DNA of 64,000 nt from Candidatus Levybacteria bacterium RIFCSPHIGHO2_02_FULL_40_18 (lineage in GTDB: Bacteria; Patescibacteriota; Microgenomatia; Levybacterales; GWA1-39-11). A program made the position numbers and the translations under genes. Below are positions 19,462-37,147 of the stretch, in pieces (the stretch's first letter is position 1; each line of letters starts with the position of its first letter). Below the pieces are notes generated by a model. That model was not told where the DNA came from. It made no database searches and was given only the letters and a program-made list of their open reading frames with translations. The stretch spans positions 13,094 to 77,093 of the forward strand of contig MFOC01000007.1 of the NCBI GenBank assembly GCA_001782235.1. Reading direction: 5' to 3'.

Positions 19462-20165
19462 TCATTTATTGACCTTCTGCAACAATGCTCTTGCTAAAAT
19501 CTCTAGAGAATTAAAAACTGGCATATTAAAATCGGAAGAGAAAACCAAAGGTAATTCAGTGCACCCCAAAATAATCCCCTCCGCTCCTCGCTTCTTAAGG
19601 GCAAGGACAATTTTTGTCAAAGTTTTACTATCTTTTTCGTCTACTTTCCCCGCCAAAACCTTCCTAATTACACCCTCTATTAAGTTTAATCGCTGACTGA
19701 AGGAGAAATAAGACGAATATTAGACTTGCTTAGCGGCTTACTGTAAAGGCCGGAGCGCAAAGTAACCGGGGTTCCCATTATCCCTATCTTTTTTAATTTC
19801 GAATTTTTCACGTTCACTCCAACTTCTTCAATCATTGAAACAAAAGGAATGGAAATAGTCTCTTGCAATTTTAGGAGAAAAAGATGAGCTGCATTACAAG
19901 CGATAGATATTTTTTTTATTTTTGCAGCTTCAAATATCGCTATTTTATCTTTTAGAACCCTAAAAGCCTTTTTTGTTTTCTTCTTGTCTGAACTCAAATC
20001 ATCTATGGGTTCGGATATGAGAACGATTTCCGGAAAATCATCTCCATTTTTCGCACCAAATTCTTTAGCGGACAAATCCACAATTAGCTTCACCAAATGG
20101 GCTGAGGCTTGAGGTCCCATTCCACCTATAATCCCAACTGACGTTTTTAAATTTATATTTTTCAT
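19462..20165 (-). pseudogene. Aspartate/glutamate racemase family gene split by a frameshift: N-terminal part 19686-20165, C-terminal part 19462-19656
   Basis: N-terminal piece has GIIGGMGPQAS; C-terminal piece has GIILGCTELPL. These are the two conserved Asp/Glu racemase motifs. The pieces are in different frames with stop codons in the ~30-nt gap. Confidence 0.55.
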
Positions 20166-20416
20166 AATTTAGACACAAAAAAACTCGCCGGTTGGCGAGC
20201 TGTTTTTAGAAATTTGAAATCGATGCACAAACACTCTCCAACCGAAAGGTTAGTTAGCTTTGTACCAATAAGATTTCATGAATTTCATGTTCTGAAAGAA
20301 TTATAGCTTCGGGAGACTTATTTGTCAAACTAATTTTTCTACCTCTATTTGACTGTTCACCACCAAACAGCCTAACAAGTATGCCTATATTGTTTTTAAA
20401 GCTCTCTAGGATTATA

Positions 20417-21667
20417 ATGCCCAAAATGCTTCTACATGATGTAGTAGTTGGTAAAAGGGACTTCCAGAAATTTCGAGGTGTGATAGAGAACGGCCTCTTC
20501 GACGACATTATTCGTCTTTCTAAAAAGCTTCGTAATAAACGCGTGTTATATATAAACTCTAATCAAAACAGAGGTGGTGTTTATGAACACCTCACGAGCC
20601 TGGTTCCACTACTTAGGGATTTACACATCAAGATAGATTGGAAAGCAATTACGGAAGTGCCTGCTGATTTTTATGAAGTTACGAAATTGCTTTATAATGG
20701 CATACAAGGTATTGAGCACAATTTTACATTAAAAGAATGGAAGATTTATGAAGATTTTAACAAAAGAATTGCCAAGGAAATAGAAGATGATCCCTGGGAT
20801 TTCGTTTTAGTCCAGGATCACCAAATGCTCGGCTCCTCAATGCAGATGAATAAAAAAAGCAGGATCAAATGGATTTGGCAATCACATTCGGAGACCCACA
20901 ACCCAACCAAAAGTCTAATTAAACAGCTCCAAAAATATTTGGAACCTTATGAAGGCATAATTTTTTATTTTCCGGAATACGTAATTCCCGGGCTTAATTC
21001 TCGTAGACTAACCACTTCATCAATCGCAATAGATCCTCTAAGTGCTAAAAATAAAACTATTAGTATAGACGAGGCAAAACAAGTTGTTAAACGGTTTGGA
21101 ATAGATTTAGGTCGACCTTTTATAACTCAGGTTTCCAGGATAGATTCTTGGAAAGATTTTCCAGGAGTTGTTGACGCCTGGCTACTTGCAAAGAAACAGA
21201 TTCCTCAACTTCAGTTAGTGTTAATTGGTGCAGTAAGTTTGAATAATATTCATGCTAAGGCAATTATCGAACTAATTGAAAAGAAAGCTATGGGAGAGAA
21301 GGATTTGCATTTGCTTGTAAATCAAGTAGAGAGGAAAGATATTAAAGCGTTTCAAACAGCAAGCAATATTGTGATACAAAAATCCCTCAGAGAGGGCTTC
21401 GGTCTAACTGTGTCTGAAGCTTTATGGTCGGGCACACCCGTCATTGGGGGTAATGTAGGCGGTATTAAACACCAAATTGTTAATGGCAAGTGTGGTTATC
21501 TTGTTGGAAGCATTGAGGAATGCTACAGACGCATTGTTGAATTAATACAAAACCCTAATAAAGCCCAAGAAATGGGCCAATTTGGCAGGGAATATATAAG
21601 GAAAAACTTTCTTTTACCAAGGCTCATGCGCGACGAACTTAAGCTAATGGTTGAGCTAATGAATTAG
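20417..21667 (+). CDS. treT: Trehalose glycosyltransferring synthase (TreT-like GT4)
   Basis: Extended similarity to archaeal TreT: LYINSNQNRGGVYEHLTSLVPLLRDL…FYEVTKLLYNGIQG, PFITQVSRIDSWKDF, and REGFGLTVSEALWSGTPVIGGNVGGIKHQIVNG. Confidence 0.75.
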   Translation: MPKMLLHDVVVGKRDFQKFRGVIENGLFDDIIRLSKKLRNKRVLYINSNQNRGGVYEHLTSLVPLLRDLHIKIDWKAITEVPADFYEVTKLLYNGIQGIEHNFTLKEWKIYEDFNKRIAKEIEDDPWDFVLVQDHQMLGSSMQMNKKSRIKWIWQSHSETHNPTKSLIKQLQKYLEPYEGIIFYFPEYVIPGLNSRRLTTSSIAIDPLSAKNKTISIDEAKQVVKRFGIDLGRPFITQVSRIDSWKDFPGVVDAWLLAKKQIPQLQLVLIGAVSLNNIHAKAIIELIEKKAMGEKDLHLLVNQVERKDIKAFQTASNIVIQKSLREGFGLTVSEALWSGTPVIGGNVGGIKHQIVNGKCGYLVGSIEECYRRIVELIQNPNKAQEMGQFGREYIRKNFLLPRLMRDELKLMVELMN

Positions 21668-21669
21668 CA

Positions 21670-22728
21670 TTATTGAAGTTTTGTTACTTTAGCAAGTAAC
21701 TTGTGTGGGTCAACCACTCTGGGACTGGCCTCGAATTCTTTAATGCGTGACATATCACAACTGACAGTGAGGCGTCTCTGCCAACGGTCAGTACCATCGT
21801 ATTTCGGATAATCTTCTTCACTGTAAGGTGCGCGGCCATGTAGTACTCGACGATTATCAAAGACGACAACTTCGCCGGCTTTTGCCCCCACAAGTACTCT
21901 CTGCCCGTTAACATGGTCCGTAAACTCATTCAGCGCATGTACTTGATCAGGTTCGTACGCTTCTAGATTGAGTCTACTCGTGTTCAGTCTAACCCATGGG
22001 TCGCTGTTTGGACCGTAAATTACCGAAACAGGCTTACCTAGATTATTTCTTGCTCCTCCTTGCATTGTGTTTGTTTGATTAAAAAACCATTTTTCTGATA
22101 AAAGGTTGCGTGTGGATGGAGAAATTTGGTCCCAATCCGGTATCGCAAGGATTGTTGGAACACGTTTGTCATTTCTGAAGAAATGTAATGTAAGAAAGTC
22201 TGGACTAATATCAAAACCTTCTCCTAGATTGAAAGAAGCATCTTCTACGTGTAGTCCGAGTTCATATCTTGCATTACCGCTATGACCGATTGCATCCGCG
22301 TATTCCTCAACAGGGATAATATTGTTGTGAATTACACCTTCTTGTTGAGTTGTGTAACCGTATCCGTACCAATCAACTAAAGAAACAAGTAATCCTCTGT
22401 AAATATCGGGGTCATAAATATTTTGATTTCCTTCATTTATCTTATATTCTGTTGGTGTAGGGCCAATATTCTTAACTGAATCAGGCCCCAAGTCAAAAAT
22501 AGCGACTTTTGCCCCGCCATGCGTAGACATTCCTTCTAGAAAATCTGTTACTTGACCTACTCTAGCTTTGAGAATTAATCCTCTTTGTCGGAGTTCGTCT
22601 AAAAACGTTGCTTCTGTGAATCGTGGAATACTTGCCCTTATGTCGTTGGCTTCGTTTTGTAAGGCGGATCGCTCGGGTTCATCAAGCTTTATCGAAACTA
22701 CACCGGGACGAAGTTCTGCTGATTGCAT
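21670..22728 (-). CDS. TauD/TfdA-family (clavaminate-synthase-like) Fe(II)/2-oxoglutarate-dependent dioxygenase
   Basis: HVED facial-triad-like motif and the C-terminal VVFDNRRVLHGR motif typical of the family. GC content is slightly above the local background. Confidence 0.5.
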   Translation of the reverse strand: MQSAELRPGVVSIKLDEPERSALQNEANDIRASIPRFTEATFLDELRQRGLILKARVGQVTDFLEGMSTHGGAKVAIFDLGPDSVKNIGPTPTEYKINEGNQNIYDPDIYRGLLVSLVDWYGYGYTTQQEGVIHNNIIPVEEYADAIGHSGNARYELGLHVEDASFNLGEGFDISPDFLTLHFFRNDKRVPTILAIPDWDQISPSTRNLLSEKWFFNQTNTMQGGARNNLGKPVSVIYGPNSDPWVRLNTSRLNLEAYEPDQVHALNEFTDHVNGQRVLVGAKAGEVVVFDNRRVLHGRAPYSEEDYPKYDGTDRWQRRLTVSCDMSRIKEFEASPRVVDPHKLLAKVTKLQ

Positions 22729-22776
22729 GATTAGTAAATTTCCTTAGGCACATTCTAATTTTCGTGTCGCCATTTG

Positions 22777-24165
22777 TCAAGAGGAGCTTAGATTTTCCAC
22801 CTCTTTTTTGAATTGTTCTCCCCGCTCTTTGTAATTTTTAAACATATTAAAGCTAGCTGCGCCGGGAGACATAAGGCAAATTTTCCCCGGGTTTGTATGT
22901 TCATAAGCTGTCAGAACAGCTTCCTTCATTGAAGCTACATCAAACTTCTTTGGCCTCAAGCTTTCATTAGGTACCTCCACACATAACGACTCCCAAATCT
23001 TTTCTCCGGTTGCAGGAAATAGAATTAGTGTACGAATTTTCGAATCCGACAGATACTTTCCAAGTTCTCTATAATCAAGGTCACGATCATATCCACCGGC
23101 AATTAATGTTTCAACATCCTCCCCGAGCGCCTCAATCCCTTCTATTACGGCCTCGGGGATTGTTGCAAGTGAGTCATTATAGAATTTAATTCCATGATGC
23201 TCTCCCACAAACTCCAGTCTATGCTCAAGACCTTTGAAGTTTTTAAGAACAGTAATTATAGTCTGCGCGTGCGCTCCAGCAATGGTCGCGGCAAGAATTG
23301 CGGCGCAAACGTTCTCAAGATTATGCTTCCCGGCAAGAAGTACCTCTGATGTAGGCATAATTTGCTCTTCCCGTGTGCCAATTTTAAGCCAAATATAGCC
23401 ATCTCTTACAAAGCATCCTTGCTCAACTTGCTGTTCTCGGCTAACACAGTAAAGCTGCCCATGTGTATGGACATCACTCTCATTTGATGCAGGATAATCT
23501 TTATTGAGAATTGCAAAATCATCCGGTCCTTGATAGCGTAAGATGTTTCTTTTTGCTTCTATATACTCATTTATGTCACGGTGGTAATCCAAATGTTCGC
23601 TTGTAACCATCAAAAACACGGCAATTTGAGGGCTTTTATTCAAATCCTGTAATTGGAAGCTTGATAGTTCTAAAACTACCTTAGAATCGATTTTAAGGTC
23701 GTTTAGAAAATCTAAGGGCGGTTTTCCCACATTGCCACCTAAATACGCATCTATCCCCCCACTTTTAAGCATTTCGTAAATAAGAGTTGCAGTCGTACTT
23801 TTCCCCTTTGTGCCCGTAACACCAATAATTTTGCATGGGCACAAGTCAAAAAAGATTTTCGTGGAACTTGTTATCTCTTTTCCTTCAGATTTTGCCTTTT
23901 CTATCACGTTTGATGAGAGCCTAATTCCGGGAGAACGAACCACCAAATCAAAATTTTCAAATGTCCTAGGATATGAATCAAACATAAAAGAGACCCCCTT
24001 GTTCTCAAAATCGGAAATTTTCTCCTCCTCAAACTTGTCACGAGAACGAACATCTACAACAAACGCCTTTGCACCGTTCTCAAGCAGAAAATTCGTAGTG
24101 CTCTCCCCTTCCAAGCCAAACCCCAAAATAACTACGTTTTTATTCTTAAAGTCCTCTTTTTTCAT
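22777..24165 (-). CDS. murD: UDP-N-acetylmuramoyl-L-alanine--D-glutamate ligase
   Basis: N-terminal VVILGFGLEGESTT and Mur ligase P-loop GVTGTKGKSTTATLIYEML; 462 aa. Confidence 0.88.
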   Translation of the reverse strand: MKKEDFKNKNVVILGFGLEGESTTNFLLENGAKAFVVDVRSRDKFEEEKISDFENKGVSFMFDSYPRTFENFDLVVRSPGIRLSSNVIEKAKSEGKEITSSTKIFFDLCPCKIIGVTGTKGKSTTATLIYEMLKSGGIDAYLGGNVGKPPLDFLNDLKIDSKVVLELSSFQLQDLNKSPQIAVFLMVTSEHLDYHRDINEYIEAKRNILRYQGPDDFAILNKDYPASNESDVHTHGQLYCVSREQQVEQGCFVRDGYIWLKIGTREEQIMPTSEVLLAGKHNLENVCAAILAATIAGAHAQTIITVLKNFKGLEHRLEFVGEHHGIKFYNDSLATIPEAVIEGIEALGEDVETLIAGGYDRDLDYRELGKYLSDSKIRTLILFPATGEKIWESLCVEVPNESLRPKKFDVASMKEAVLTAYEHTNPGKICLMSPGAASFNMFKNYKERGEQFKKEVENLSSS

Positions 24166-25481
24166 TATGGAATAATTGATTTGAATTCATCCGGAATTTT
24201 ATCTTCTGATGACGGCCCGAGCAATTGCTCCGAACTCTTTTCAATTACTTGAAATTCTTGATTAAACTTCTCATAAAACATTTTAAAGACCGGAGTTTCA
24301 TTGTAAGAACCCTTTTTATAGGCAAGGAGTAAGGCAAGTTTTACCTCTTCAGGGGTTCCTACACAGTCAAACGGCTTAACATCTCTTACTCCAAGAAGTT
24401 CTTCGTAAGTTGGAATTAGGCTTTCGGACTCATAAAGATTCTTACCAAATATGCTTATTAGCTTATCCTTATCTATAAAGGCTGAAAGTAGACAAAAGAC
24501 AAAAGCACACTTTGGGCACTCTCCGCACCAAAGAATATTCGAAGGGTCTTTGAACCTGAAGTTTTTATTACAACTTGTGAAGACGTGGAAGTATTTATTA
24601 AATCTTGCAAACACTTCAGCTATCTTAATCTCGTGGTACGGACGAAGTAGTGAAAAATAAATAATGTCCGGGGTAATAAATCCAGAGATGTAATGCCGGA
24701 CAAAAGCTTCAAACTCCTCAGACTTACTCCACTGATGATTAATCTCTTCCCCCAAGTATTCAACATTACCGTAATTTGCGCTCTTCTCATTTGGCATAAT
24801 AATATATTTATAGTCAAAAAGTGCTGCTGCGAGAAGCCCTGTGAAAGCATATATAGAAGAAATCGGTATATGCCCGTTATACACATCTTCCCGTTTATGC
24901 AGCGCAAAAATCTGTGGATCAAGTTCTCGCCTGATATTTATATTCTCAATTCCCATGATTTGTGCTATTTGTCTGTGAACCTGTGTGGGATTAAGAACAA
25001 AGCCGCTGAATTCGCGGCCGTTTGACTTGAGAAGTTCACCCGCAACAGCTGAATCTTTTCCTCCACCCACACCAAGTAAGGACCTATTTTCCCTTGGCAA
25101 GGAGATCGGAGCGTCAAGGTTATCTTGATACGGAAAATTTATAAGCCTTCTATAGTTGATTTTATTTTTATAAAAAAACTCGCCTAGACCCTTTGCATAA
25201 ACGGTGTTCCAAAAATTGGCTTGATTTTGTGAAAGAGAAATTTTTGGCGTCAAAATTTCTTTCGGACAAAATAGCTTCCAATAACTTACCCCCAAGGCCA
25301 AGTGGAGACTGTCAAGGATTTTTTTGATAACGTCCGGATCGAAACCCGAAACGGGGTCGAAGGTTATTTTCTCGGTGAATTTAAATTCCTCCCAGCCGCG
25401 TTTTATTGTATAGAAAAAATTGACATACCCCTGCTCTATTTGAGCATCGTATCCCGCAAAGATAAACTCTCCACCCTGCAT
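24165..25481 (-). CDS. PP-loop superfamily ATP pyrophosphatase (QueC-like C-terminal Cys cluster), function unknown; translationally coupled to murD
   Basis: LLGVGGGKDSAVAG is an SGGxDS-type PP-loop. CGECPKC lies near the C-terminus. There is an N-terminal ~130-aa extension. Its stop codon overlaps the murD ATG (ATGA). Confidence 0.5.
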   Translation of the reverse strand: MQGGEFIFAGYDAQIEQGYVNFFYTIKRGWEEFKFTEKITFDPVSGFDPDVIKKILDSLHLALGVSYWKLFCPKEILTPKISLSQNQANFWNTVYAKGLGEFFYKNKINYRRLINFPYQDNLDAPISLPRENRSLLGVGGGKDSAVAGELLKSNGREFSGFVLNPTQVHRQIAQIMGIENINIRRELDPQIFALHKREDVYNGHIPISSIYAFTGLLAAALFDYKYIIMPNEKSANYGNVEYLGEEINHQWSKSEEFEAFVRHYISGFITPDIIYFSLLRPYHEIKIAEVFARFNKYFHVFTSCNKNFRFKDPSNILWCGECPKCAFVFCLLSAFIDKDKLISIFGKNLYESESLIPTYEELLGVRDVKPFDCVGTPEEVKLALLLAYKKGSYNETPVFKMFYEKFNQEFQVIEKSSEQLLGPSSEDKIPDEFKSIIP

Positions 25482-25543
25482 TGGTATATTATATACTTTT
25501 TTATTTCTTTCTAGCTTTATTTTATGGTAAAATTAGGCCCATT

Positions 25544-25615
25544 GGCTGGGTAGCTCAATGGTGGAGCGGTCGTTTCATAAGCGACAGGTTGTCGGTTCGA
25601 TCCCGACCCCAGCTA
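25544..25615 (+). tRNA. tRNA-Met (anticodon CAT)
   Basis: Manually folded cloverleaf: acceptor GGCTGGG/CCCAGCT; D stem GCTC/GAGC; anticodon stem GTCGT/GCGAC with loop TTCATAA; T arm GTCGG-TTCGATC-CCGAC. Confidence 0.85.
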
Positions 25616-25669
25616 CAGACTTGACAATCACGATTCTTTTTATATAAACTATCAAAGAATTTATCTTCC

Positions 25670-26044
25670 ATGGAAACTCTACTTACCGGCATTGCAAGCT
25701 TTACGCTTTTCCATATTATTTCTCACCCCAAATCACGCGTAAGTAAAAAGGTCCCATATGCTCGAATTAAAAGAGTGCAATTCCTGCCGAATTTAAGAAT
25801 AGAAGTAAAAAATAGAGTTCTTCACATCCATCACTGGATGTTATTTGCTCCTGTTTACCTTTTCACTCAAACGAAAGGCGCAGGCATTTTTCAGTCGGAT
25901 CTCCTGCAAGGCTTTTTAATAGGGGGGATTCTTCAGGGATTAATGTATAAAGACAGTTTAAAACTTATTCATTCGGCAGCAAAACCATTTGAAAAACAGG
26001 GTTATACCGCTTATCCCATCCGCCTCTTCAAAAAAATCTTCTAA
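25670..26044 (+). CDS. Hypothetical small protein
   Basis: ORF between tRNA genes; hydrophobic segments; no recognised motif. Confidence 0.3.
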   Translation: METLLTGIASFTLFHIISHPKSRVSKKVPYARIKRVQFLPNLRIEVKNRVLHIHHWMLFAPVYLFTQTKGAGIFQSDLLQGFLIGGILQGLMYKDSLKLIHSAAKPFEKQGYTAYPIRLFKKIF

Positions 26045-26124
26045 AAAGCATGCACTGAGCGAGTTAAACGCGTTGAAGTGATTGCTTCAAGCCTTGAAAT
26101 AAACTAAAATACACATACTGTCTT

Positions 26125-26200
26125 GTGCCCGTAGTTCAACGGATAGAACACCTGGTTGCGGTCCAGGCGGTTGGAGGTTCGATTCCTCTCGGGCACGCCA
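26125..26200 (+). tRNA. tRNA-Arg (anticodon GCG by manual fold), CCA encoded
   Basis: Acceptor GTGCCCG/CGGGCAC; D stem GTTC/GAAC; anticodon stem CCTGG/CCAGG with loop TTGCGGT; T arm GGAGG-TTCGATT-CCTCT; 3' GCCA. Confidence 0.8.
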
Positions 26201-26285
26201 GGAGGGTTCGCATAGAGGCCAATTGCGCGAGTTTCGAAAACTCGAGGGAGCAATCCCTTCACAGGTTCGAATCCTGTACCCTCCG
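26201..26285 (+). tRNA. tRNA-Ser (anticodon CGA), long variable arm; directly abuts the preceding tRNA-Arg
   Basis: Acceptor GGAGGGT/ACCCTCC; anticodon stem CGAGT/ACTCG with loop TTCGAAA; long variable arm; T arm ACAGG-TTCGAAT-CCTGT. Confidence 0.85.
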
Positions 26286-26449
26286 CAGGTCAGAACGATA
26301 TTTAAGAAATAGCTAATCCTATTAGCTTTAACAAGCTAACTTTTCTTTTAATCAGAAGTTCCAACGGGTTTAGCTATTCCTAAGGACATTTTTTTAAAGT
26401 TTTACAATTTTGTGCCTAATTGGTGATTTTAAACAGGTTCCAACCGAGA

Positions 26450-26926
26450 CTAACCTTGTTTAGGAGCTTGCTCAAATGCGGGTTTGTTTGGAGTAAAAGG
26501 CATCGTTCCTTCTTTGGAAATGTACGCATCATATCCGCCTTTAATTAGCAGGTCATGTTGTTGACCAACGCAAATGGCATCATATGCACCACAGACTATT
26601 ATTGGTCTTCCTTCCGGGACATTGGCTCTTTCAAAAGGGCCCGCAGTAGTGTAATCGAAGTTATGTTCTATAAAGTCTAATTCTTTGAGTAATCTTTGAC
26701 GGGTTTCCTCATCTCTTTCTTGATTGTTTTCTATTTCGCTTTTATGAACAACTACATAAAATGGTGATTTGTCTTTAACATGACCCTCTTCATCCAAAAA
26801 CTCCTGATAAGACTTTACTAGTGGATTCTTTATTCGTTCTTTGGCTTTTTCTTCAAACTCTAATCTTTTTTTATGTTCAGCATCAGCTTCGTCAAAAAGT
26901 TTGTCAATGTCAATATCTTCGCTCAT
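26450..26926 (-). CDS. Hypothetical protein (C-terminal isochorismatase/cysteine-hydrolase-like segment)
   Basis: IIVCGAYDAICVGQQHDLLIKGGYDAYISKEG resembles the C-terminal part of the isochorismatase fold. The N-terminal half is acidic and low-complexity. Confidence 0.35.
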   Translation of the reverse strand: MSEDIDIDKLFDEADAEHKKRLEFEEKAKERIKNPLVKSYQEFLDEEGHVKDKSPFYVVVHKSEIENNQERDEETRQRLLKELDFIEHNFDYTTAGPFERANVPEGRPIIVCGAYDAICVGQQHDLLIKGGYDAYISKEGTMPFTPNKPAFEQAPKQG

Positions 26927-27007
26927 GTTTATATTATATAATACACATTGGGTCTTGTTGCTTGGGATTTGTAAAAGGTTCCAACATAGTCAACTAGGCA
27001 CCGCACG

Positions 27008-27079
27008 GCCCTTGTAGTTCAACGGATAGAATAGGGGATTCCGGATCCTCTGATGTGGGTTCGATTCCCGCCAGGGGCA
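27008..27079 (+). tRNA. tRNA-Arg (anticodon CCG)
   Basis: Acceptor GCCCTTG/CAGGGGC; anticodon stem GGGGA/TCCTC with loop TTCCGGA; T arm GTGGG-TTCGATT-CCCGC. Confidence 0.8.
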
Positions 27080-27089
27080 CCTTAATTTT

Positions 27090-27524
27090 ATGAAATTTGA
27101 GTTTTCAGCAGGAGGCGTTGTTTACAAAAAAGAGGATTCCAAAATTTATATTTTGGTTTCCCAGCATTCCCAGCATTTGGGCTGGGTTTTCCCAAAAGGA
27201 TTGATAGGTGACCATGTTAAAGAAGAAAAAAAGGAAGAAACTGCTGTCCGGGAAGTAAAAGAAGAAACGGGAGCAGAAGCGGAAATTATGGGTGAAATCA
27301 CACCAGTTACTTATTGGTATGCGTGGGAAGGGGAAAAGCGCAAGAAAACCGTCTATTATTTTGTTATGAAATTTACTGGCGGAGATATAACAGAACACGA
27401 CCATGAAATGTCTGCTGTTGAATGGCTCCCAGAAAACAAAGTTATGGAACGTCTAAGCTACAAAAGTGATAAGGATGCTTTTCTTGAGGCACTTCCTCTC
27501 ATCAAAAAGCTCGCAAAATCCTAA
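27090..27524 (+). CDS. NUDIX hydrolase
   Basis: Nudix box region …ETAVREVKEETGAEAE…; 144 aa. Confidence 0.7.
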   Translation: MKFEFSAGGVVYKKEDSKIYILVSQHSQHLGWVFPKGLIGDHVKEEKKEETAVREVKEETGAEAEIMGEITPVTYWYAWEGEKRKKTVYYFVMKFTGGDITEHDHEMSAVEWLPENKVMERLSYKSDKDAFLEALPLIKKLAKS

Positions 27525-27575
27525 CTCTTATTTTATAATTCACATACGAGCCTTATTGAAAAATGGGGAAAACCA

Positions 27576-27665
27576 GGTGGGATGTCCGAGTGGTTTAAGG
27601 AGCACGCTTGGAGAGCGTGTATGGCCGTAAGGTTATCCCGGGTTCGAATCCCGGTCCCACCGCCA
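27576..27665 (+). tRNA. tRNA-Ser (anticodon GGA), long variable arm, CCA encoded
   Basis: Acceptor GGTGGGA/TCCCACC; anticodon stem CACGC/GCGTG with loop TTGGAGA; T arm CCGGG-TTCGAAT-CCCGG; 3' GCCA. Confidence 0.85.
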
Positions 27666-30357: not shown

Positions 30358-30436
30358 TTGTAACTCGAAAGTGGTATAATTTTTGAACGTAAAACGTGCG
30401 GGGTAGTGTAAAGCTGCACAGGAGGCTCATAATCTC

Positions 30437-32173
30437 CTAGACAAGGTGCGATTCCTTGCTCCGCAACACAGTAGGAATTGAGGCATACTTTTCTTCAAAT
30501 TGTGCCCGTAATTCAGCCTCTTTCTCAGGTGCGACCCTTTCCGCAATCACCGGAGATTCTTTTCTCATTCTTGCAATCGCTCCAATGTATTTTGGACTGT
30601 CAAATATAACCTTTTTATCCATAAGTGTTAGGTGCAACCCTAATCCCATAAAAATATCCCGTTTCACTTTAATATCCGGAAGGGCAAATCTCGCTCTAGC
30701 TCTTGCTACAAAATTGAAAGCGCTGGCAGTATCGTTATTGGATTGAATCATCTGCTCATCAAAGTTGCCGAGTTGCTTCTCAATAGCCTTTAATTCGCTC
30801 TCTAGTGCCTCTTTTTGCTCTTTGTATTGTTCGTCTGATAAAAGACTGCTATCAGCATTTGTTGGCGATATTTTAAGCTGTAAGAGGTTGTTCAGTTTTA
30901 TCCTGCAGGAATCGTGTGCCTTTTTAATACCTTTAACTGCTTCTTCCTCAAAATCCTTATTTGCTTCGTTCATTTTGCGAATTTGTTTTATTGCCCAATT
31001 CATAAAAAGAGGGGAAATTTCAACCTGTGAAAGCCTGTTGTCTATTTGTTCCTCAAGGTTATCTACTCTGACTGCGCGCTGTAAGCACGCAGAATTTTTC
31101 TTTCTTCCACACCTGTAATAAACATAGTGAAGTATTTTAGGATTATTCATGTTCTCAATAATTGTTCCACAATCCGTGCATTTATCCTTGTTCTTTTGGG
31201 TAAGGGAAAACTTTGTCTTACAGCTTGAGCAGATACATTGCCATTTTTGTTCAGCTACTATTCCTGAATTACAGAACCCGCAGCGCATAAGGGCATTGAA
31301 AGCATAATCATTATGTTTGAGCTTGTATTGACTCCTACCACCCAACTTCATTTGAATTTCATTAAAAACTTCCTCACTCACGGCTTTTTCATGGCCGCCT
31401 TCATACCATTTCCCACTCCCCAAGGGATATTCAAACTTTCCGCAGTAGAAGGGGTTAGTCAAAATAAAATATATCATAGATAGAGAAAGTGGCTTGCCGC
31501 CTATTCTCTTGTGTTGCCTAGTTTTAAAATGCCATTCTTCATCCGCGATTCTGTGAATTTCAATCGCAGGCGTCCCGGAATGAAATAGCTCAAAAATCTT
31601 TTTTACGTATGGCATACGCTCCGGGTCTGTGGGTATTTTCCTTAATCCGCTTTCGGTTGCTTTGTCATTCAAATATCCTTGTGGGGCTACTCCCGGTCTC
31701 CATCCGTTGCGCGCTTTTCCTTCCAAACCCCTACTTACGACGATACTTTTATCATCACTGTCTTTCTTAGACATTCCAAATTCAAGGGCTAACATAAATT
31801 TATCTTCCGGCGTGTTGCGATATGCACGAGAAGGGGTGCGGATTTCAATAAGTTTTCCTTCGTCCATTAGGTATAATAGTTGTCCTGCGTCAAGAGAGTT
31901 GCGGCATAGTCGGTTAGGATGCCATGTTAATATTGCATTTGCTTCACCTTTCTCTATTCTTTGAAGCATAAGGTTAAAAAGGGGTCTACCTGTCTTAAAA
32001 GCTGATTGGGATTCTTGTAAAACATCAACTACTGAAAGATTTTGTTTCGTTCGGACTCCCTCAATAATGTAAAGTTGGTCAGGTAAAGAGGCGGCTTGTC
32101 TCTCGCGGTTGTCTTCGGAAGATTTACGGGCGTAGCCTATATATTTCAATCTCAATTGTTCATTCATCTTCAT
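30437..32173 (-). CDS. Large serine recombinase (resolvase/invertase catalytic domain + recombinase domain + zinc ribbon)
   Basis: N-terminal YIGYARKSSEDNRERQAASLPDQ (catalytic Ser), recombinase domain, Cys-rich zinc ribbon (CGFCNSG…CSSC, CTDCG), and a C-terminal coiled coil. Confidence 0.85.
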   Translation of the reverse strand: MKMNEQLRLKYIGYARKSSEDNRERQAASLPDQLYIIEGVRTKQNLSVVDVLQESQSAFKTGRPLFNLMLQRIEKGEANAILTWHPNRLCRNSLDAGQLLYLMDEGKLIEIRTPSRAYRNTPEDKFMLALEFGMSKKDSDDKSIVVSRGLEGKARNGWRPGVAPQGYLNDKATESGLRKIPTDPERMPYVKKIFELFHSGTPAIEIHRIADEEWHFKTRQHKRIGGKPLSLSMIYFILTNPFYCGKFEYPLGSGKWYEGGHEKAVSEEVFNEIQMKLGGRSQYKLKHNDYAFNALMRCGFCNSGIVAEQKWQCICSSCKTKFSLTQKNKDKCTDCGTIIENMNNPKILHYVYYRCGRKKNSACLQRAVRVDNLEEQIDNRLSQVEISPLFMNWAIKQIRKMNEANKDFEEEAVKGIKKAHDSCRIKLNNLLQLKISPTNADSSLLSDEQYKEQKEALESELKAIEKQLGNFDEQMIQSNNDTASAFNFVARARARFALPDIKVKRDIFMGLGLHLTLMDKKVIFDSPKYIGAIARMRKESPVIAERVAPEKEAELRAQFEEKYASIPTVLRSKESHLV

Positions 32174-32351
32174 CTTTTTTTATTTTATACACTAAGTTTA
32201 ACTTTTGGCAAGTTGTCGCCGTAAATAGCTTTTATAAACTTTATAAGCTTTGTTGCAAGCCCTACAGCTTCTTGATCGTTTAATTCTTCTCCATACTCTT
32301 TCAGGTATAACTCTTTAAATTCGGCAACAGCTTGAGGGTCTAATTGCACAG

Positions 32352-32888
32352 TTATTCCCTCTCCCTTTCTGTATCCTCTTGGAAACTACTATCAAAAGAA
32401 CCTAAATCAACCCTAGAAGAACGATAAAGCCTTTGGGGGGTATTCCGATCTCGTTTCTCTTGCGAAATTGCATATTTCTCTTGCAATTCTGCATTAATCC
32501 TATACATATCTGCATAAAGGTCGTGCGGATTTGCATAATCTTTATCATACATTTTGTCAGCGACGTCGGTCAGAAAAAGAGGTAAATAGCCTAGAAGTAT
32601 GTATCGTTTGTGTTTAATTGCATACTTTCTGTCTTTGGCTTCTAGCTTATCAAGTCCTCTTGAGAGTTTGCTTTGGCTAATATTGAGAAGGGCAGCTATT
32701 TCCGTCTGCGTCCCAACAACATGGCCAAATTGATTTGGATACTTCCTGTCCCACCTTGCGTCAATCACTAACGCTATGTAGAGACTAAACAGGTGATAGC
32801 CAATATCCTGTCTAAGCATTTTAGAATGTCTTGGTAGCGCTAGATAGCCATGATACCGTTTAGCTTCATCTTTATTCATATTCATCAC
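32352..32888 (-). CDS. Hypothetical protein with a putative HTH
   Basis: EIAALLNISQSKLSRGLDKL is HTH-like. Confidence 0.3.
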   Translation of the reverse strand: MMNMNKDEAKRYHGYLALPRHSKMLRQDIGYHLFSLYIALVIDARWDRKYPNQFGHVVGTQTEIAALLNISQSKLSRGLDKLEAKDRKYAIKHKRYILLGYLPLFLTDVADKMYDKDYANPHDLYADMYRINAELQEKYAISQEKRDRNTPQRLYRSSRVDLGSFDSSFQEDTERERE

Positions 32889-32900
32889 TCCATTGCATAT

Positions 32901-33155
32901 TTATCGCCTTGCAAATAGGCGGTCTTTTAGTGTTTTGATTGAGGTTGCGTATTCTTTGGCGTCAACTTGAAGTTCGCCTGCCCAATAAGCATTAGAGGAG
33001 TGTTCGCAGGAGTTCTTGTCAGCAAATACGAACCAATAGAAGTTTTGCTCTTGCTCTAGCCGGAGTAGTTTTGCCCCTTTGGCTGTCAAGGCGGCCGCTT
33101 CTGATAAATCCTTTGTTCTATAAATATCTTTTCCCCCTACATCCCCATTTTCCAT
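32901..33155 (-). CDS. Small hypothetical protein (possibly DUF5659-like)
   Basis: 84 aa; YRTKDLSEAAALTAKGAKLL… pattern recalled as recombinase-associated; weak. Confidence 0.25.
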   Translation of the reverse strand: MENGDVGGKDIYRTKDLSEAAALTAKGAKLLRLEQEQNFYWFVFADKNSCEHSSNAYWAGELQVDAKEYATSIKTLKDRLFARR

Positions 33156-33222
33156 ATAAAAAGACTAAATGCTATGCTTGGGCTAATCATAAAGGATGAG
33201 GCGGATTGAATATAAGAGACGG

Positions 33223-33891
33223 TTAAGGACTTGCTAAATGTCCCCCTGAATTTAAGAAGGCTTTATATCTTTTAATCTGTTTCTTTACATTGTCTACAAA
33301 TGCTCTCGGATCAATTGCTCCTCTGTATGGCGTTCCTGTCGCGATCTGCAGGAGTTTTGCCCCACTTTTCCTTAACCAATACCATTCTCGATCCCTTTTT
33401 ATTTCCTGCTTGGTATCTCCCTTATAAGCACTTTCTAATGGAAGATAAATATTTGAAACTGTATATAACCAATCTCCGTATTTAAAATTTTTCTTTGAGA
33501 TTTCAGACTCGTTTAGATCTTCATTCCTTACCTCTCCGCATACCAATGCTCGTAAAATAAGATCATATAGCGATGGTGAAATGCCGAGCCTTTTTAATAA
33601 TTGCTCAGCCTCGAACTCAACAGGATCCAAATATGCAATCTCGCGTTCTTTGGATGGATCATCTCCTAAATTGTCTTTTGCTTCATAGAGAATCGAAGCG
33701 GCATGCGAACTTAATGGGAAGTCATGGTATGATTCGCGCCATGAATGATACTTATCATAGGGAATCAGACCCTTATTGAGCCTCCAACACTGTCTGATTT
33801 CAATGAAGCTGTTAAGAAGTTTATCCTGATCGAGGATAAATGCAACTCCTGCAAATGTCTTTAAATCGTCAATCTCAATATCAATCTCCAT
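33223..33891 (-). CDS. Hypothetical protein
   Basis: 222-aa ORF, divergent from the next gene; no recognised motif. Confidence 0.35.
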   Translation of the reverse strand: MEIDIEIDDLKTFAGVAFILDQDKLLNSFIEIRQCWRLNKGLIPYDKYHSWRESYHDFPLSSHAASILYEAKDNLGDDPSKEREIAYLDPVEFEAEQLLKRLGISPSLYDLILRALVCGEVRNEDLNESEISKKNFKYGDWLYTVSNIYLPLESAYKGDTKQEIKRDREWYWLRKSGAKLLQIATGTPYRGAIDPRAFVDNVKKQIKRYKAFLNSGGHLASP

Positions 33892-34407
33892 TTGAGGACA
33901 TTCTACACAAAACCCCTACTCGGTTGCCACCTGTGGGCCGCGAGGATGCCCTGTGGCAAGAGATTATATGAGGTTTTAGGAAATACCCCGACTTGCAAAC
34001 GGGTTTATAATATAAATATGGAAAATTCAGTGGTAGCCGTCCCTATTGGTAGGCCGGCATTGAGTAACGATGACATAAACCTCATTTTCCGCAAATTAGA
34101 GCCACACTTAAAGATGGGATTGTCTATCAATAGAGCTTGTTATAAAGCCTCGATTCCAAAATCTACAGTCTATGATTTATACAATGAAAATAGTCAATTT
34201 GCGGAAAGAATCGATACTGCTCGAAATTACTTTACAGACTTAATAAATAACATAATACATACTGAATTATTAGACATAGTTGAGTTTCAAAAGATTAGCT
34301 TGGGCCCTTTAAATACAGATGAGAAAAAGTTCATACTATGGATTGCCGCAAATAGCAACGCCATGAAAGAGTATTATTGCTCCAACATCCAAAAGATAGA
34401 TGAGTAA
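33892..34407 (+). CDS. Hypothetical protein (possible HTH; the true start may be the internal Met near 34018)
   Basis: LSINRACYKASIPKSTVYD is HTH-like. Confidence 0.35.
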   Translation: MRTFYTKPLLGCHLWAARMPCGKRLYEVLGNTPTCKRVYNINMENSVVAVPIGRPALSNDDINLIFRKLEPHLKMGLSINRACYKASIPKSTVYDLYNENSQFAERIDTARNYFTDLINNIIHTELLDIVEFQKISLGPLNTDEKKFILWIAANSNAMKEYYCSNIQKIDE

Positions 34408-34728
34408 TTTATAAAATCAGCTTCAAAGTGGCTCAGAAAACTCGGGTCTTCACCTTTTAAATGGCTCCACAAACTCTACAAATCTCTTTTTAATGGCTCT
34501 AAAAACTCCAATTGACCAAGAATGCTATAATCAAGCTATAATTTGATTGCCTAAACTCACAGTAATGTGGGCATGGCACAAAAACCTTCGCAGAATTAAG
34601 CTCGTCGTCAGAGCATCTGCGAAGGTTGTCGCCCGAAAGGACGGCAGGTGGGGCAACCCATCGTTGGCGGCGAGCTTTGCTATTGTTCGCCTCCAACAAA
34701 ACCTAAACTGTCGAGGGAGGTGAAAAAT

Positions 34729-35172
34729 ATGGGTAAATTAAAATTAGCAGGAATTATTTTTGTAGCATTTATTATCGGCGTATTCGTTGGTATTTCAGGA
34801 AACGGTAGGAGTTCTACTACAAATAGTCAGGAGATAAAACAATCTACAAGCACCAATAGTCCTGCCCCATCAGAAGAAGCAAAAGATACGGGTAAAGTTG
34901 AGGTCAAAAGCCAATCGAAAAAGATATCATCAATTGGATATATGGAAATAGTCGGTGAAGTAGTAAACAATACAGATAGACCTGTGTCATCTATCAAAAT
35001 AACAGCAACCTACTATGATGAGGAAGGTAAAGTCATAGGGACGAGCTTCTCTTATGCAGGGGACACATCAGATACGCCGCTTGCGGTTGGAGCGACAGCT
35101 CCATTTGAGGTAAGCAGCTATCCGGATAAAATAGATACTGACAACTATAAACTTGATGTTAATTGGAATTGA
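34729..35172 (+). CDS. Hypothetical secreted/membrane-anchored protein
   Basis: MGKLKLAGIIFVAFIIGVFVGISG signal-anchor, then a Ser/Thr-rich linker and a beta-rich domain. Start taken at the Met with a GGGAGGTG SD. Confidence 0.4.
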   Translation: MGKLKLAGIIFVAFIIGVFVGISGNGRSSTTNSQEIKQSTSTNSPAPSEEAKDTGKVEVKSQSKKISSIGYMEIVGEVVNNTDRPVSSIKITATYYDEEGKVIGTSFSYAGDTSDTPLAVGATAPFEVSSYPDKIDTDNYKLDVNWN

Positions 35173-35239
35173 TTCCTTTTTTGTTTTTTGGTCAGTTGCT
35201 TTTATGAGTCAAGCTCTACATTAAGTAGGAAAATCTTAT

Positions 35240-36007
35240 GTGGTATATTCTCGTCCTATAGGTATGATTAAAGCGTTAGTCGTCATTTTAGCTTTTCTTG
35301 CATTTCTTATATCCCTTACTCCTACTTCTCATGCGGCATATAAAGAAACTGAAATGGACAAGAAAAAGCTTTTCAAGATAGTGAGTATTACTGATGGCGA
35401 TACAATTACTGCAAGTATTCGCAGAAAAAATGAGAGTTTAAGGTTGCTCGGAATTGATACTCCTGAAAGCGTTGATCCAAGAAAGCCGGTTCAGTGTTTT
35501 GCGAAAGAGGCCACAAACAAAATGAAAGCATTTGTTTTAGGCAAGTTTGTAAAGTTGGTTGACGATCCAACGCAGGGGAATAGAGATAAATATTCAAGAC
35601 TTCTCCGTTATGTTTATTTGCCTGACAGCAAAGCGACTTTTGTAAATGGAGAGATGGTTAAACAAGGGTATGCTTTCTCCTACAGACAATACCCGACAAA
35701 AATGCTCGAGAAGTTCAATGCTTTTGAAAAATACGCACGAGAACATAATTTGGGCTTGTGGGGTTCATGTCCTATAAACGTGAACCCGTCAGCAACACTT
35801 AAACCTGTAAGAACTACAAACCTACCTGTTCAAAATCAACGACCATCACAGTCAGGACCAACTTATACCGGAGGAGACAAGGATTGTTCTGATTTTGCGA
35901 CACACGCGGAAGCTCAAACCTTCTTTATTTCACAGGGCGGGCCGGCAAGCGACCCTCACAGACTTGATGCAGACCATGACGGTCTTGCTTGTGAAACTCT
36001 ACCCTAA
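35240..36007 (+). CDS. Secreted thermonuclease (SNase-like) with a C-terminal Excalibur calcium-binding domain
   Basis: Signal-anchor; SITDGDTITA…LGIDTPES; YVYLPDSKATFVNGEMVKQGYA; C-terminal DADHDGLACE Excalibur motif. Confidence 0.7.
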   Translation: MVYSRPIGMIKALVVILAFLAFLISLTPTSHAAYKETEMDKKKLFKIVSITDGDTITASIRRKNESLRLLGIDTPESVDPRKPVQCFAKEATNKMKAFVLGKFVKLVDDPTQGNRDKYSRLLRYVYLPDSKATFVNGEMVKQGYAFSYRQYPTKMLEKFNAFEKYAREHNLGLWGSCPINVNPSATLKPVRTTNLPVQNQRPSQSGPTYTGGDKDCSDFATHAEAQTFFISQGGPASDPHRLDADHDGLACETLP

Positions 36008-36074
36008 ATCTATTTAGGTTAAAAGTTGAGGTAAAACAATCTCAATGTATGACGCCTCTATTAAAATAAGCGCC

Positions 36075-36896
36075 CTATGTAAAACTATTGTTTAAAAAGA
36101 ATTCTCGTATATCAAACACTCTTTTTGAATAATCAACAAACATCTGTATATTGTGTAAAGCGACCTTTCTCACAGGCATATTCCCGGTAGGATGTCCTGC
36201 TTGATTTCTGTTAACACGGATGAAATTGAAAATTCCATCAAGATATGTATCAAGATCTTGTTTAAGGTCTGTAGGAATTTGGTTTAGAAAGTGAGATAGC
36301 TCTGCTTTGAAGATTGTATATTGAGAGGTAATCCATTTATCTCTTATTCGATTTTGGAAAGAAGATCGTCTAGTCGTATTTGGAAGCGCTTGAGCAAAAG
36401 ATTCGATTAGAAGGAGGACTACATTTTCAGATGCAACACCAAGAGTAATAGCAGATGAAAGGAGCAGGTCTCGATTATATGCTGTAATTGCTTCGCCTAG
36501 ATATTTTAAAGTAATATCATCTACGCTTGCTACTTGAGCTTTATACTCCGCTAAATATCCATCAGGATCGTAAGGAAGAATTATCTCATTTTGGAAACAC
36601 TCCTCGCCGTAGCTCGTAACTGATATATACCCAAAACTTTGAGCATCCAAGTCATTTTTATTTCCAAAAGCAAGAAGTCCATTAGAAACCCATTCGTTGA
36701 TTATTTCAAGAATTATTGGGTTAGTTTTTGCTTCTTCGAGGTGATTATATTCGGGCATCATATTCCTAAACAAATCCCTGACGGATTGAATAAGCGTCTG
36801 CCCTTTATAATTACATACCGATTGAAAATCGTCAGAGGAGCACTTTTTAAAGAAAGTGAACATGTGTGTTCTTATCTCGTCTCTCGTCATACTCAA
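36075..36896 (-). CDS. Hypothetical protein with an Rx4H motif (HEPN-like; possible Abi-type defence protein)
   Basis: RVNRNQAGHPTG contains R-x4-H. Otherwise alpha-helical and acidic; no other recognised motif. Confidence 0.35.
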   Translation of the reverse strand: MSMTRDEIRTHMFTFFKKCSSDDFQSVCNYKGQTLIQSVRDLFRNMMPEYNHLEEAKTNPIILEIINEWVSNGLLAFGNKNDLDAQSFGYISVTSYGEECFQNEIILPYDPDGYLAEYKAQVASVDDITLKYLGEAITAYNRDLLLSSAITLGVASENVVLLLIESFAQALPNTTRRSSFQNRIRDKWITSQYTIFKAELSHFLNQIPTDLKQDLDTYLDGIFNFIRVNRNQAGHPTGNMPVRKVALHNIQMFVDYSKRVFDIREFFLNNSFT

Positions 36897-37147
36897 TGAT
36901 AATATTATACCTTACAAGAAAAAAGGGTAGATTATGAAATAATAGTGGTGAAATTAAGCTAATTGTGGTATAAATACAGGTGTGGTTTGGGTGAGGAAGT
37001 AGGTGCGGATTTCTTCCAACCCCCGCAACAACGAACCATTCGCTATCGCTCAGGTTCATCGCTGCGCAGCCTAAGAAGCGAGTGTGAGGCAGGAATGTAC
37101 CGGAGTCCTACGACTGGTACGTTCCAACGAAAAAAACCTCTTATCCT

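Follow-up and report, generated by a model that had tools for sequence, protein, structure and literature searches.

A probable MurL epimerase gene overlapping the gene for a MurD2-type ligase in Candidatus Levybacteria, and its relatives across the Candidate Phyla Radiation

We analysed a 64,000-nucleotide (nt) stretch of DNA from Candidatus Levybacteria bacterium RIFCSPHIGHO2_02_FULL_40_18 (contig MFOC01000007.1, positions 13,094 to 77,093; hereafter the window), whose minus strand carries two overlapping genes with a likely role in supplying the D-glutamate (D-Glu) of peptidoglycan precursors. The first is an open reading frame (ORF) of 438 amino acids (aa) with an ATG start (24165..25481, minus strand), recorded in GenBank for this organism as a "hypothetical protein". 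Judging from sequence comparison, we put the probability that this ORF encodes MurL, acting with a MurD2-type ligase in a two-step route to D-Glu, at about 0.87, and we refer to it below as murL. The second gene (22777..24165, minus strand, 462 aa) encodes the ligase, a match to the family TIGR01087. On the minus strand their junction reads CCATAATGAAA, with the murL TAA stop at 24165-24167 and the ligase ATG at 24163-24165; the resulting TAATG (24163..24167, minus), read directly from the sequence, has one shared nucleotide, and this overlap suggests that the two genes are translationally coupled. The first-pass annotation of this DNA had described the ORF, a GGGKDS PP-loop, a cysteine cluster and an overlap between the stop codon and the murD ATG, and all of these were confirmed.

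The features of the MurL protein, all encoded on the minus strand, begin with an N-terminal domain (residues 1-128; 25098..25481) consisting of a three-stranded beta-meander and helices, followed by a PP-loop ATP-pyrophosphatase core (approximately residues 129-335; 24477..25097) in which the GGGKDS motif occupies G139-S144 (25050..25067). The string CGECPKC lies at residues 319-325 and, with C304 added, makes up a four-cysteine cluster, C304...C319-x2-C322-x2-C325 (24507..24572); closer to the C-terminus is the motif K369-P-F-D-C373-V-G (24357..24377). An alignment of 44 MurL homologues from the Candidate Phyla Radiation (CPR), at roughly 50% identity, has 61 conserved positions. Among these homologues G139, G140, G141, K142, S144, C304, C319, C322, C325 and C373 are invariant, as are K369, P370, V374 and G375 around C373, and D143 of the PP-loop is kept in at least 90%. 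Such invariance shows these motifs to be under selection rather than chance strings. K369, P370, C373, V374 and G375 are also kept in the more distant Xanthomonas and Pseudonocardia homologues considered below, and the four cluster cysteines in both the X. sacchari MurL and the Pseudonocardia homologue; KPFDCVG is moreover specific enough to have served as one of the two patterns in our genome scan. Its position in an invariant motif makes C373 a candidate catalytic residue, while the four-cysteine cluster is a probable structural metal (Zn) site, an assignment made by analogy with QueC, the nearest fold match.

Within NCBIfam the ORF has a single full-length match, the MurL model NF041275 (E=5.7e-102, 341.5 bits), which aligns with residues 6-435 of 438 over profile positions 10-441 of 447. 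A protein 100% identical to the window MurL (P0001) carries the Pfam domains PF26299 (MurL_N) and PF26298 (MurL_epimerase_C), and so does the corresponding gene in a locus that is 99.995% identical to ours (L098). A database search with the window MurL returned thousands of homologues, the listed matches carrying precomputed PF26299 and PF26298, and some homologues are already labelled as epimerases by the Joint Genome Institute. Our local Pfam-A scan of the murL ORF yielded no family, which we attribute to a gap between library versions, since both domains are precomputed on the identical protein. The N-terminal domain of about 130 aa noticed at first pass is thus real (about 128 aa), but it is not novel, being PF26299.

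An annotated MurL from Xanthomonas sacchari, present in a plasmid collection, is 33.2% identical to the window MurL over 98% of the latter and shares 53 of the 61 CPR-conserved positions, including the PP-loop, the four clustered cysteines and C373. The motifs common to the two proteins are GGGKDS, GH(I/V)P, NE.SA, NHQWSK, SCN, WC..C.KC and KPF(D/E)CVG. The biochemical characterisation of MurL and MurD2 (XOO_1319 and XOO_1320) in X. oryzae dates back to 2017 (Feng et al. 2017; see the reviews PMC8788868 and PMC5808125). According to these reviews, MurD2 is a MurD paralogue that ligates L-Glu and thereby supplies the substrate of MurL, which converts one ATP to AMP and runs in the L to D direction only; MurL is described as having no known domains, and the pair is placed in "relatively few bacterial genera", namely Gamma- and Alphaproteobacteria and rare actinomycetes. 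The MurL family is therefore already known, and the window gene appears to belong with the Xanthomonas proteins by every criterion that can be applied to sequence, apart from a lineage-tuned score cutoff discussed below. With a characterised family and with NCBIfam and Pfam models to describe it, the earlier label "uncharacterised" had to be dropped. On the other hand, the accompanying idea of an adenylating enzyme working with the neighbouring MurD on the UDP-MurNAc-peptide is supported by the homology to MurL, and the more specific proposal of a "MurL-like" epimerisation of Glu by the NF041275 match and by the residues of the partner ligase.

MurL-like genes also occur in Pseudonocardia, on the P. 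alni plasmid pPaSha1 (L084 4959-6359) and also in H2 and H4. They keep the PP-loop, as GGGRDS, and the cysteine cluster, and they are flanked by genes for a WD40 protein and a helix-turn-helix protein. The plasmid gene could encode a paralogue of MurL that acts on another substrate, and MurL paralogues with other roles may exist more generally.

With 386.8 bits the partner ligase clears the TIGR01087 cutoff of 212, and GenBank names it a "D-glutamate ligase". At the same time, MurD2 of X. sacchari (L083 6301-7737) also passes this model, at 298 bits, and TIGR01087 therefore cannot tell MurD from MurD2. We aligned the ligase positions to E. coli MurD, allowing for a one-residue offset due to the removed initiator Met. 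E. coli D182, K319, K348, A414 and L416 correspond to E190, L333, R361, A437 and F439 in the window ligase, and to E, I, R, P and F in X. sacchari MurD2. In X. oryzae MurD2 the changes E197D/R358K, at the positions of E. coli D182 and K348, turn the specificity from L-Glu to D-Glu, whereas P433A and F435L, at those of A414 and L416, leave it unchanged; conversely, K319T in E. coli MurD confers acceptance of L-Glu (PMC8788868). With E190 and R361, the window ligase has both published determinants of L-Glu use.

Our control panel consists of 13 canonical MurDs. One is that of E. coli; the other 12, each annotated as MurD or plainly its orthologue, are encoded on chromosomes wrongly filed as plasmids and represent Firmicutes, Bacteroidota, Alpha-, Beta- and Gammaproteobacteria, and Leptospira. 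Position 182 (E. coli numbering) is D in nine of the 13, A in three and N in one, but never E; position 319 is K in 12 of 13; position 348 is K in ten and R in three; and P is never seen at position 414. E182 and R348 occur together in none of the 13. In the Streptococcus agalactiae MurD (3LK7) position 182 is Thr, position 319 Lys and position 348 Arg. By comparison, in the ligases linked to MurL in 76 CPR loci and in 18 proteins of fusion length (both sets are described below), position 348 is R in 72 of 73 and 18 of 18, respectively, and position 319 is never K in either set, being I or L in 71 of 73 loci. Position 414 is P in 70 of 72 loci and 15 of 17 fusion-length proteins; position 182 is divided between E and D (61 and 15 in the loci, 8 and 10 in the fusion-length proteins). 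Set against the 13 canonical MurDs, the combination of E182, R348 and loss of K319 was found only in MurL-linked ligases, and we suggest loss of K319 as an additional hallmark of MurD2, beyond what the accessible literature describes.

These residues argue that the window ligase is probably an L-Glu-adding MurD2 and not the "D-Glu-adding ligase" that it had been taken for at first pass. Given the MurD2 residues and the inability of TIGR01087 to discriminate, the GenBank name is probably wrong too, and we consider "D-glutamate ligase", as assigned by TIGR01087 and the Prokaryotic Genome Annotation Pipeline, to be a systematic error in MurL-carrying genomes. The nearest match to the window ligase outside the CPR (34.5% identity) is an atypical MurD of the control panel, that of Pusillibacter faecalis pMM59_01 (L086 1980-3356), which is encoded outside the division and cell wall (dcw) cluster and has N, I, S, K and T at E. 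coli D182, K319, T321, K348 and A414.

A motif scan of one genome per GTDB species, with patterns taken from the MurL alignment, gave at least 594 stretches that were confirmed as relatives. Gene neighbourhoods were counted in the best-scoring 80 of these, which are not a random sample. All 80 come from metagenome-assembled genomes and nearly all are labelled CPR, with a few apparent submitter mislabels; they include Levy-, Roizman-, Woese-, Moran-, Taylor-, Uhr-, Falkow-, Staskawicz- and Kerfeldbacteria as well as Peregrinibacteria/Peribacteria, Gracilibacteria and Saccharibacteria. Closed CPR chromosomes such as CP066689.1 and OZ246396.1 have murL as well, and in the Levybacteria it lies on contigs of up to 405 kb. 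Of the 80 loci, four break off at most about 100 nt from murL, leaving 76 with room downstream, and a MurD homologue is present on the strand of murL in all 76, mostly directly after it, so the linkage to murD, which had been put forward as a check on the functional proposal, is conserved. In 36 of the 76 loci murL and murD form one continuous ORF. Overlaps or gaps of at most 30 nt account for 35 more (35 of the 40 unfused pairs), gaps of 31-300 nt for two and gaps above 300 nt for three. None of the other window neighbours (the dioxygenase, GT4 and NUDIX genes and the rest) is conserved across the 80 related loci, which suggests that the conserved unit is the murL-murD pair only.

The same association is seen at the protein level. 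An exhaustive HMMER search, run on 1.84 billion cluster representatives, returned 2,649 members of the MurL family at E<=1e-3, of which 1,227 are at E<=1e-30, each member standing for a cluster at 50% identity. Among the top 150, 18 are of fusion length (795-894 aa). NCBIfam models confirmed the order MurL-MurD, the common one of the two, in P0137 (865 aa) and P0141 (883 aa), and the reverse order in P0245 (878 aa), where MurD occupies residues 25-445 and MurL residues 454-845. Fusions in both orders imply independent fusion events.

The window also carries a frameshifted gene of the Asp-racemase type (19462..20165, minus strand), which is read in two frames and shifts between them once, near 19,690-19,710. 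The N-terminal 159 aa (19686-20165), about two-thirds of the protein, run into a stop, and the rest, including the second catalytic-cysteine motif GCTELPLV, lies in another frame (19462-19707). Rejoining the two parts gives a protein of 235 aa, for which TIGR00035, the model for amino-acid racemases of the Asp type, returns 150.2 bits (cutoff 93.1) and TIGR00067, the MurI model, only 42 (cutoff 146.65). The gene had been noted before as an inactivated Asp/Glu racemase; inactivated it is, but its type is Asp racemase and not MurI. Its DNA is identical at 731 of 731 nt in four independent assemblies from four samples, which argues that the frameshift is real in the population rather than a one-off assembly error. 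No other gene of the racemase superfamily is found within the 64-kb window. The frameshift is consistent with, although no proof of, a free D-amino-acid supply that has become dispensable.

A confident AlphaFold2 model of MurL built from the 44-sequence alignment (predicted local distance difference test score, pLDDT, 94.0; predicted template modelling score, pTM, 0.93) runs from a strand at residues 131-137 through the GGGKDS loop into a helix at 142-153, as in the Rossmann-like core of the PP-loop superfamily. Foldseek matches to the PDB were all PP-loop ATP pyrophosphatases, with the matched part confined to the core at about residues 129-335: QatC (E=3.9e-5), QueC (4.1e-5), TtuA, Cap9, MnmA and argininosuccinate synthetase. 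A fold search with the isolated N-terminal domain (residues 1-128) gave no informative match. A sequence search of the PDB with MurL found nothing at E<=1, suggesting that no MurL structure has been deposited. When the MurL alignment was compared with E. coli QueC in hhalign, 17 columns aligned, with a probability of 2.6%, and these cover only the PP-loop (SGGQDS in QueC), so the relation appears to be one of superfamily rather than of membership in QueC. The comparison with QueC, TilS and ThiI that had been recommended at first pass thus brought out a likeness in fold, though no membership by profile. The model points to a QueC/Cap9-like PP-loop ATP pyrophosphatase fold. PP-loop enzymes adenylate their substrate and release pyrophosphate, which fits the published ATP-to-AMP stoichiometry of MurL and supports an adenylation-first mechanism; the predicted fold is in this sense consistent with the chemistry of an ATP-to-AMP epimerase.

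Based on its specificity residues, MurD2 would carry out the first step of such a pathway by using ATP to couple UDP-MurNAc-L-Ala with L-Glu, and not with D-Glu. In the second step, suggested by the homology to Xanthomonas and by the fold, the PP-loop of MurL would bind ATP, and the enzyme would adenylate the alpha-carboxylate of the terminal L-Glu, with pyrophosphate leaving. This activation would acidify the C-alpha proton of the Glu, which could then be taken off and given back from the opposite face, with invariant C373, H204, H249 and K253 as candidate bases. Inversion might occur directly on the adenylate, or perhaps via an oxazolone or a thioester of Cys373, while C304, C319, C322 and C325 would probably hold a structural zinc as in QueC. 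The use of ATP would make the MurL reaction unidirectional, so that neither a free D-Glu pool nor a glutamate racemase would be needed.

Several observations weigh against the assignment of the pair as MurL and MurD2. The MurL score lies under the equivalog cutoff of 700 bits of NF041275, a model named for and tuned to Xanthomonadales, which the X. sacchari protein passes with 836.5 bits. The Pseudonocardia plasmid homologue reaches a similar 323 bits on this model without having a murD neighbour, so that a homology score alone is no proof of function. As for the ligase, R348 is also present in canonical MurDs of Bacilli, the Pusillibacter control MurD is likewise without K319, and the window ligase has Ala rather than Pro at the position of A414, although the published P433A mutant kept its specificity for L-Glu. 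Glu182 is not universal among MurL-linked ligases (it is D in 15 of 76 loci and 10 of 18 fusions), and neither is Pro414. Finally, the evidence comes from 64 kb only, and murI or a D-amino-acid aminotransferase may lie elsewhere in the genome. Some of these points would suit a different arrangement, in which the ligase is a canonical D-Glu-adding MurD, a racemase is encoded elsewhere and MurL only repairs or proofreads precursors that have received the wrong L-Glu: just 64 kb of the genome is in view for murI, R348 by itself is compatible with D-Glu use in Bacilli, and the ligase both passes the "D-glutamate ligase" model TIGR01087 and is annotated likewise in GenBank. We nevertheless regard a repair role as unlikely. 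TIGR01087 accepts the Xanthomonas MurD2 too, the window ligase has the E190/R361 pair and is without K319 (PMC8788868), the sole racemase-family gene in the window is frameshifted, and the universal adjacency, with fusions in 36 of 76 loci, is better suited to an obligate two-step pathway.

Adenylation of a muropeptide carboxylate could also serve some other modification, such as amidation to iso-glutamine (the function of MurT/GatD), which the first-pass annotation had offered as its second option, or the attachment of an amine. Amidation via an adenylate is common among PP-loop enzymes (QueC, NAD synthetase, asparagine synthetase), and enzymes of this kind are among the fold matches of MurL. 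Yet the Pfam and NCBIfam scans show no similarity to MurT/GatD and the locus has no glutaminase domain or partner gene, while the homology to a proven epimerase is full-length, with 53 of 61 conserved residues in common; the L-Glu signature of the ligase would, moreover, leave the stem peptide without D-Glu unless MurL epimerises it. We find this reading less probable still than a repair role, and its MurT/GatD form was rejected, the ORF having neither a Mur-ligase nor a glutaminase domain and no glutaminase gene lying nearby. The nearest solved folds (QueC, Cap9 and QatC, then TilS, TtuA and ThiI) and the QueC-like C-x2-C-x2-C cluster could instead suggest an enzyme of the QueC, TilS or ThiI type that modifies tRNA or a nucleobase, next to murD by coincidence. 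A clear profile match to QueC or TilS combined with a lack of murD linkage was looked for and did not turn up: QueC, TilS and ThiI gave no match in Pfam or NCBIfam, the hhalign alignment to E. coli QueC is limited to the 17-residue PP-loop, at its 2.6% probability, tRNA-binding domains are absent, and murD is linked in 76 of 76 loci, 36 of them fusions. Together, the profiles, hhalign and the murD linkage effectively refute this possibility, to which we give almost no weight.

Preferring, then, MurL and MurD2 as the identity of the pair, we propose that the window gene be renamed from "hypothetical protein" to MurL. A much broader proposal, which we hold tentatively and at slightly less than even odds, is that MurD2/MurL could be a major, perhaps the usual, route to D-Glu across the CPR/Patescibacteria, often as a single bifunctional MurL-MurD2 or MurD2-MurL polypeptide; that MurL could be a QueC-like adenylating enzyme with a Cys4 metal site and with Cys373 as general base or thioester; and that the decaying racemase could be a remnant no longer needed. 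With at least 594 species-level genomes and 2,649 clusters at 50% identity, the MurD2/MurL system is far more widespread than published reviews state, which matters for proposals of MurD2/MurL as a narrow-spectrum antibiotic target. The natural fusions in both orders provide independent evidence for the two-step pathway, and they are attractive for structural studies of the handover of the intermediate. The predicted QueC-like PP-loop fold, for its part, gives a concrete and testable basis for the unusual ATP-to-AMP epimerase chemistry. We found no earlier report of MurL in Patescibacteria, of its PP-loop fold, of the fusions or of K319 loss as a mark of MurD2, and nothing relevant on glutamate racemase in the CPR, papers in subscription journals being outside the coverage of our search. 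The very broad occurrence in the CPR, the many fusions (in either order), the fold and the loss of K319 go beyond the accessible literature.

The surroundings of the pair include several further features. A gene for an Fe(II)/2-oxoglutarate dioxygenase (21670-22728, minus strand) lies 48 nt downstream of murD; its product is similar to GntD and VioC, which are arginine/enduracididine beta-hydroxylases (scores of 123 and 92 bits, each under cutoff). The gene is probably unrelated to the murL-murD pair, since it is not found beside murL-murD in 80 other CPR loci. The gap between murD and the dioxygenase gene contains a putative, consensus-like promoter, TTGACA-17-TAGAAT; in a promoter and terminator scan of 21500-25800, which includes this element, counts did not rise above the shuffled background. 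A gene for a GT4 glycosyltransferase with an N-terminal domain of the trehalose-synthase type (TreT; 20381-21667, plus strand) separates the dioxygenase gene from the racemase pseudogene. In a related genome (L002) the corresponding place, between murD and trpS, is taken by trpB and trpA.

On the other side, divergently upstream of murL, five tRNA genes (Met-CAT, Arg-GCG, Ser-CGA, Arg-CCG and Ser-GGA; 25544-27665, plus strand) are loosely clustered and interspersed with small ORFs, the first tRNA lying only 63 nt from the murL start codon. Further along, a strain-variable insertion of about 6.55 kb (30469-37022) adjoins a tRNA-Met gene (30397-30467). Two of four otherwise identical assemblies (L099 and L101) are without it, window position 30468 being joined to 37023 with an 8-nt overlap. 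The insertion carries a 578-aa serine recombinase (30437-32173) and a LOOT RNA (34548-34662, 87 bits), the only Rfam small RNA match in the window, and it looks like an integrated mobile element.

Compared with the characterised X. oryzae system, the window pair has an epimerase homologous over its full length, in which the PP-loop, the four-cysteine cluster and the KPF(D/E)CVG motif recur, and murL again precedes murD, the stop of the one overlapping the start of the other (by 20 nt in the Xanthomonas locus that we retrieved and by 1 nt in the window). Both ligases have the Glu and Arg residues, and in both K319 is replaced by a hydrophobic side chain and the L416 position is aromatic. At the same time, the two epimerases are only about 33% identical, with the window protein scoring under the Xanthomonadales cutoff, and the window ligase has Ala for Pro at A414. 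The host, a member of the Levybacteria (CPR/Patescibacteria), belongs to a lineage outside those named in the reviews, and while Xanthomonas has two separate, overlapping genes (in the reviews, XOO_1319 plus XOO_1320), about half of the CPR relatives have them fused.

Other systems resemble the pair less closely. QueC, Cap9 and QatC have no relation to MurL at the level of sequence profiles beyond the PP-loop (as judged by hhalign against E. coli QueC), and MurL has two additional domains, one of 128 aa at the N-terminus and a helical one of about 100 aa at the C-terminus; by analogy with the Xanthomonas enzyme, its substrate would be the UDP-muramyl dipeptide rather than a deazapurine, and the outcome would be stereo-inversion and hydrolysis rather than formation of an amide or nitrile. 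MurT/GatD is similar in making an ATP-dependent change to the Glu residue of a precursor, but MurT is an enzyme of the Mur-ligase family that acts with a glutaminase on lipid II, and neither protein is similar to the window MurL. In the canonical route through MurI and MurD, MurI is a reversible, cofactor-independent two-cysteine racemase that works on free glutamate before ligation, whereas MurL comes into play once ligation is done, uses up ATP and works in one direction only (PMC8788868).

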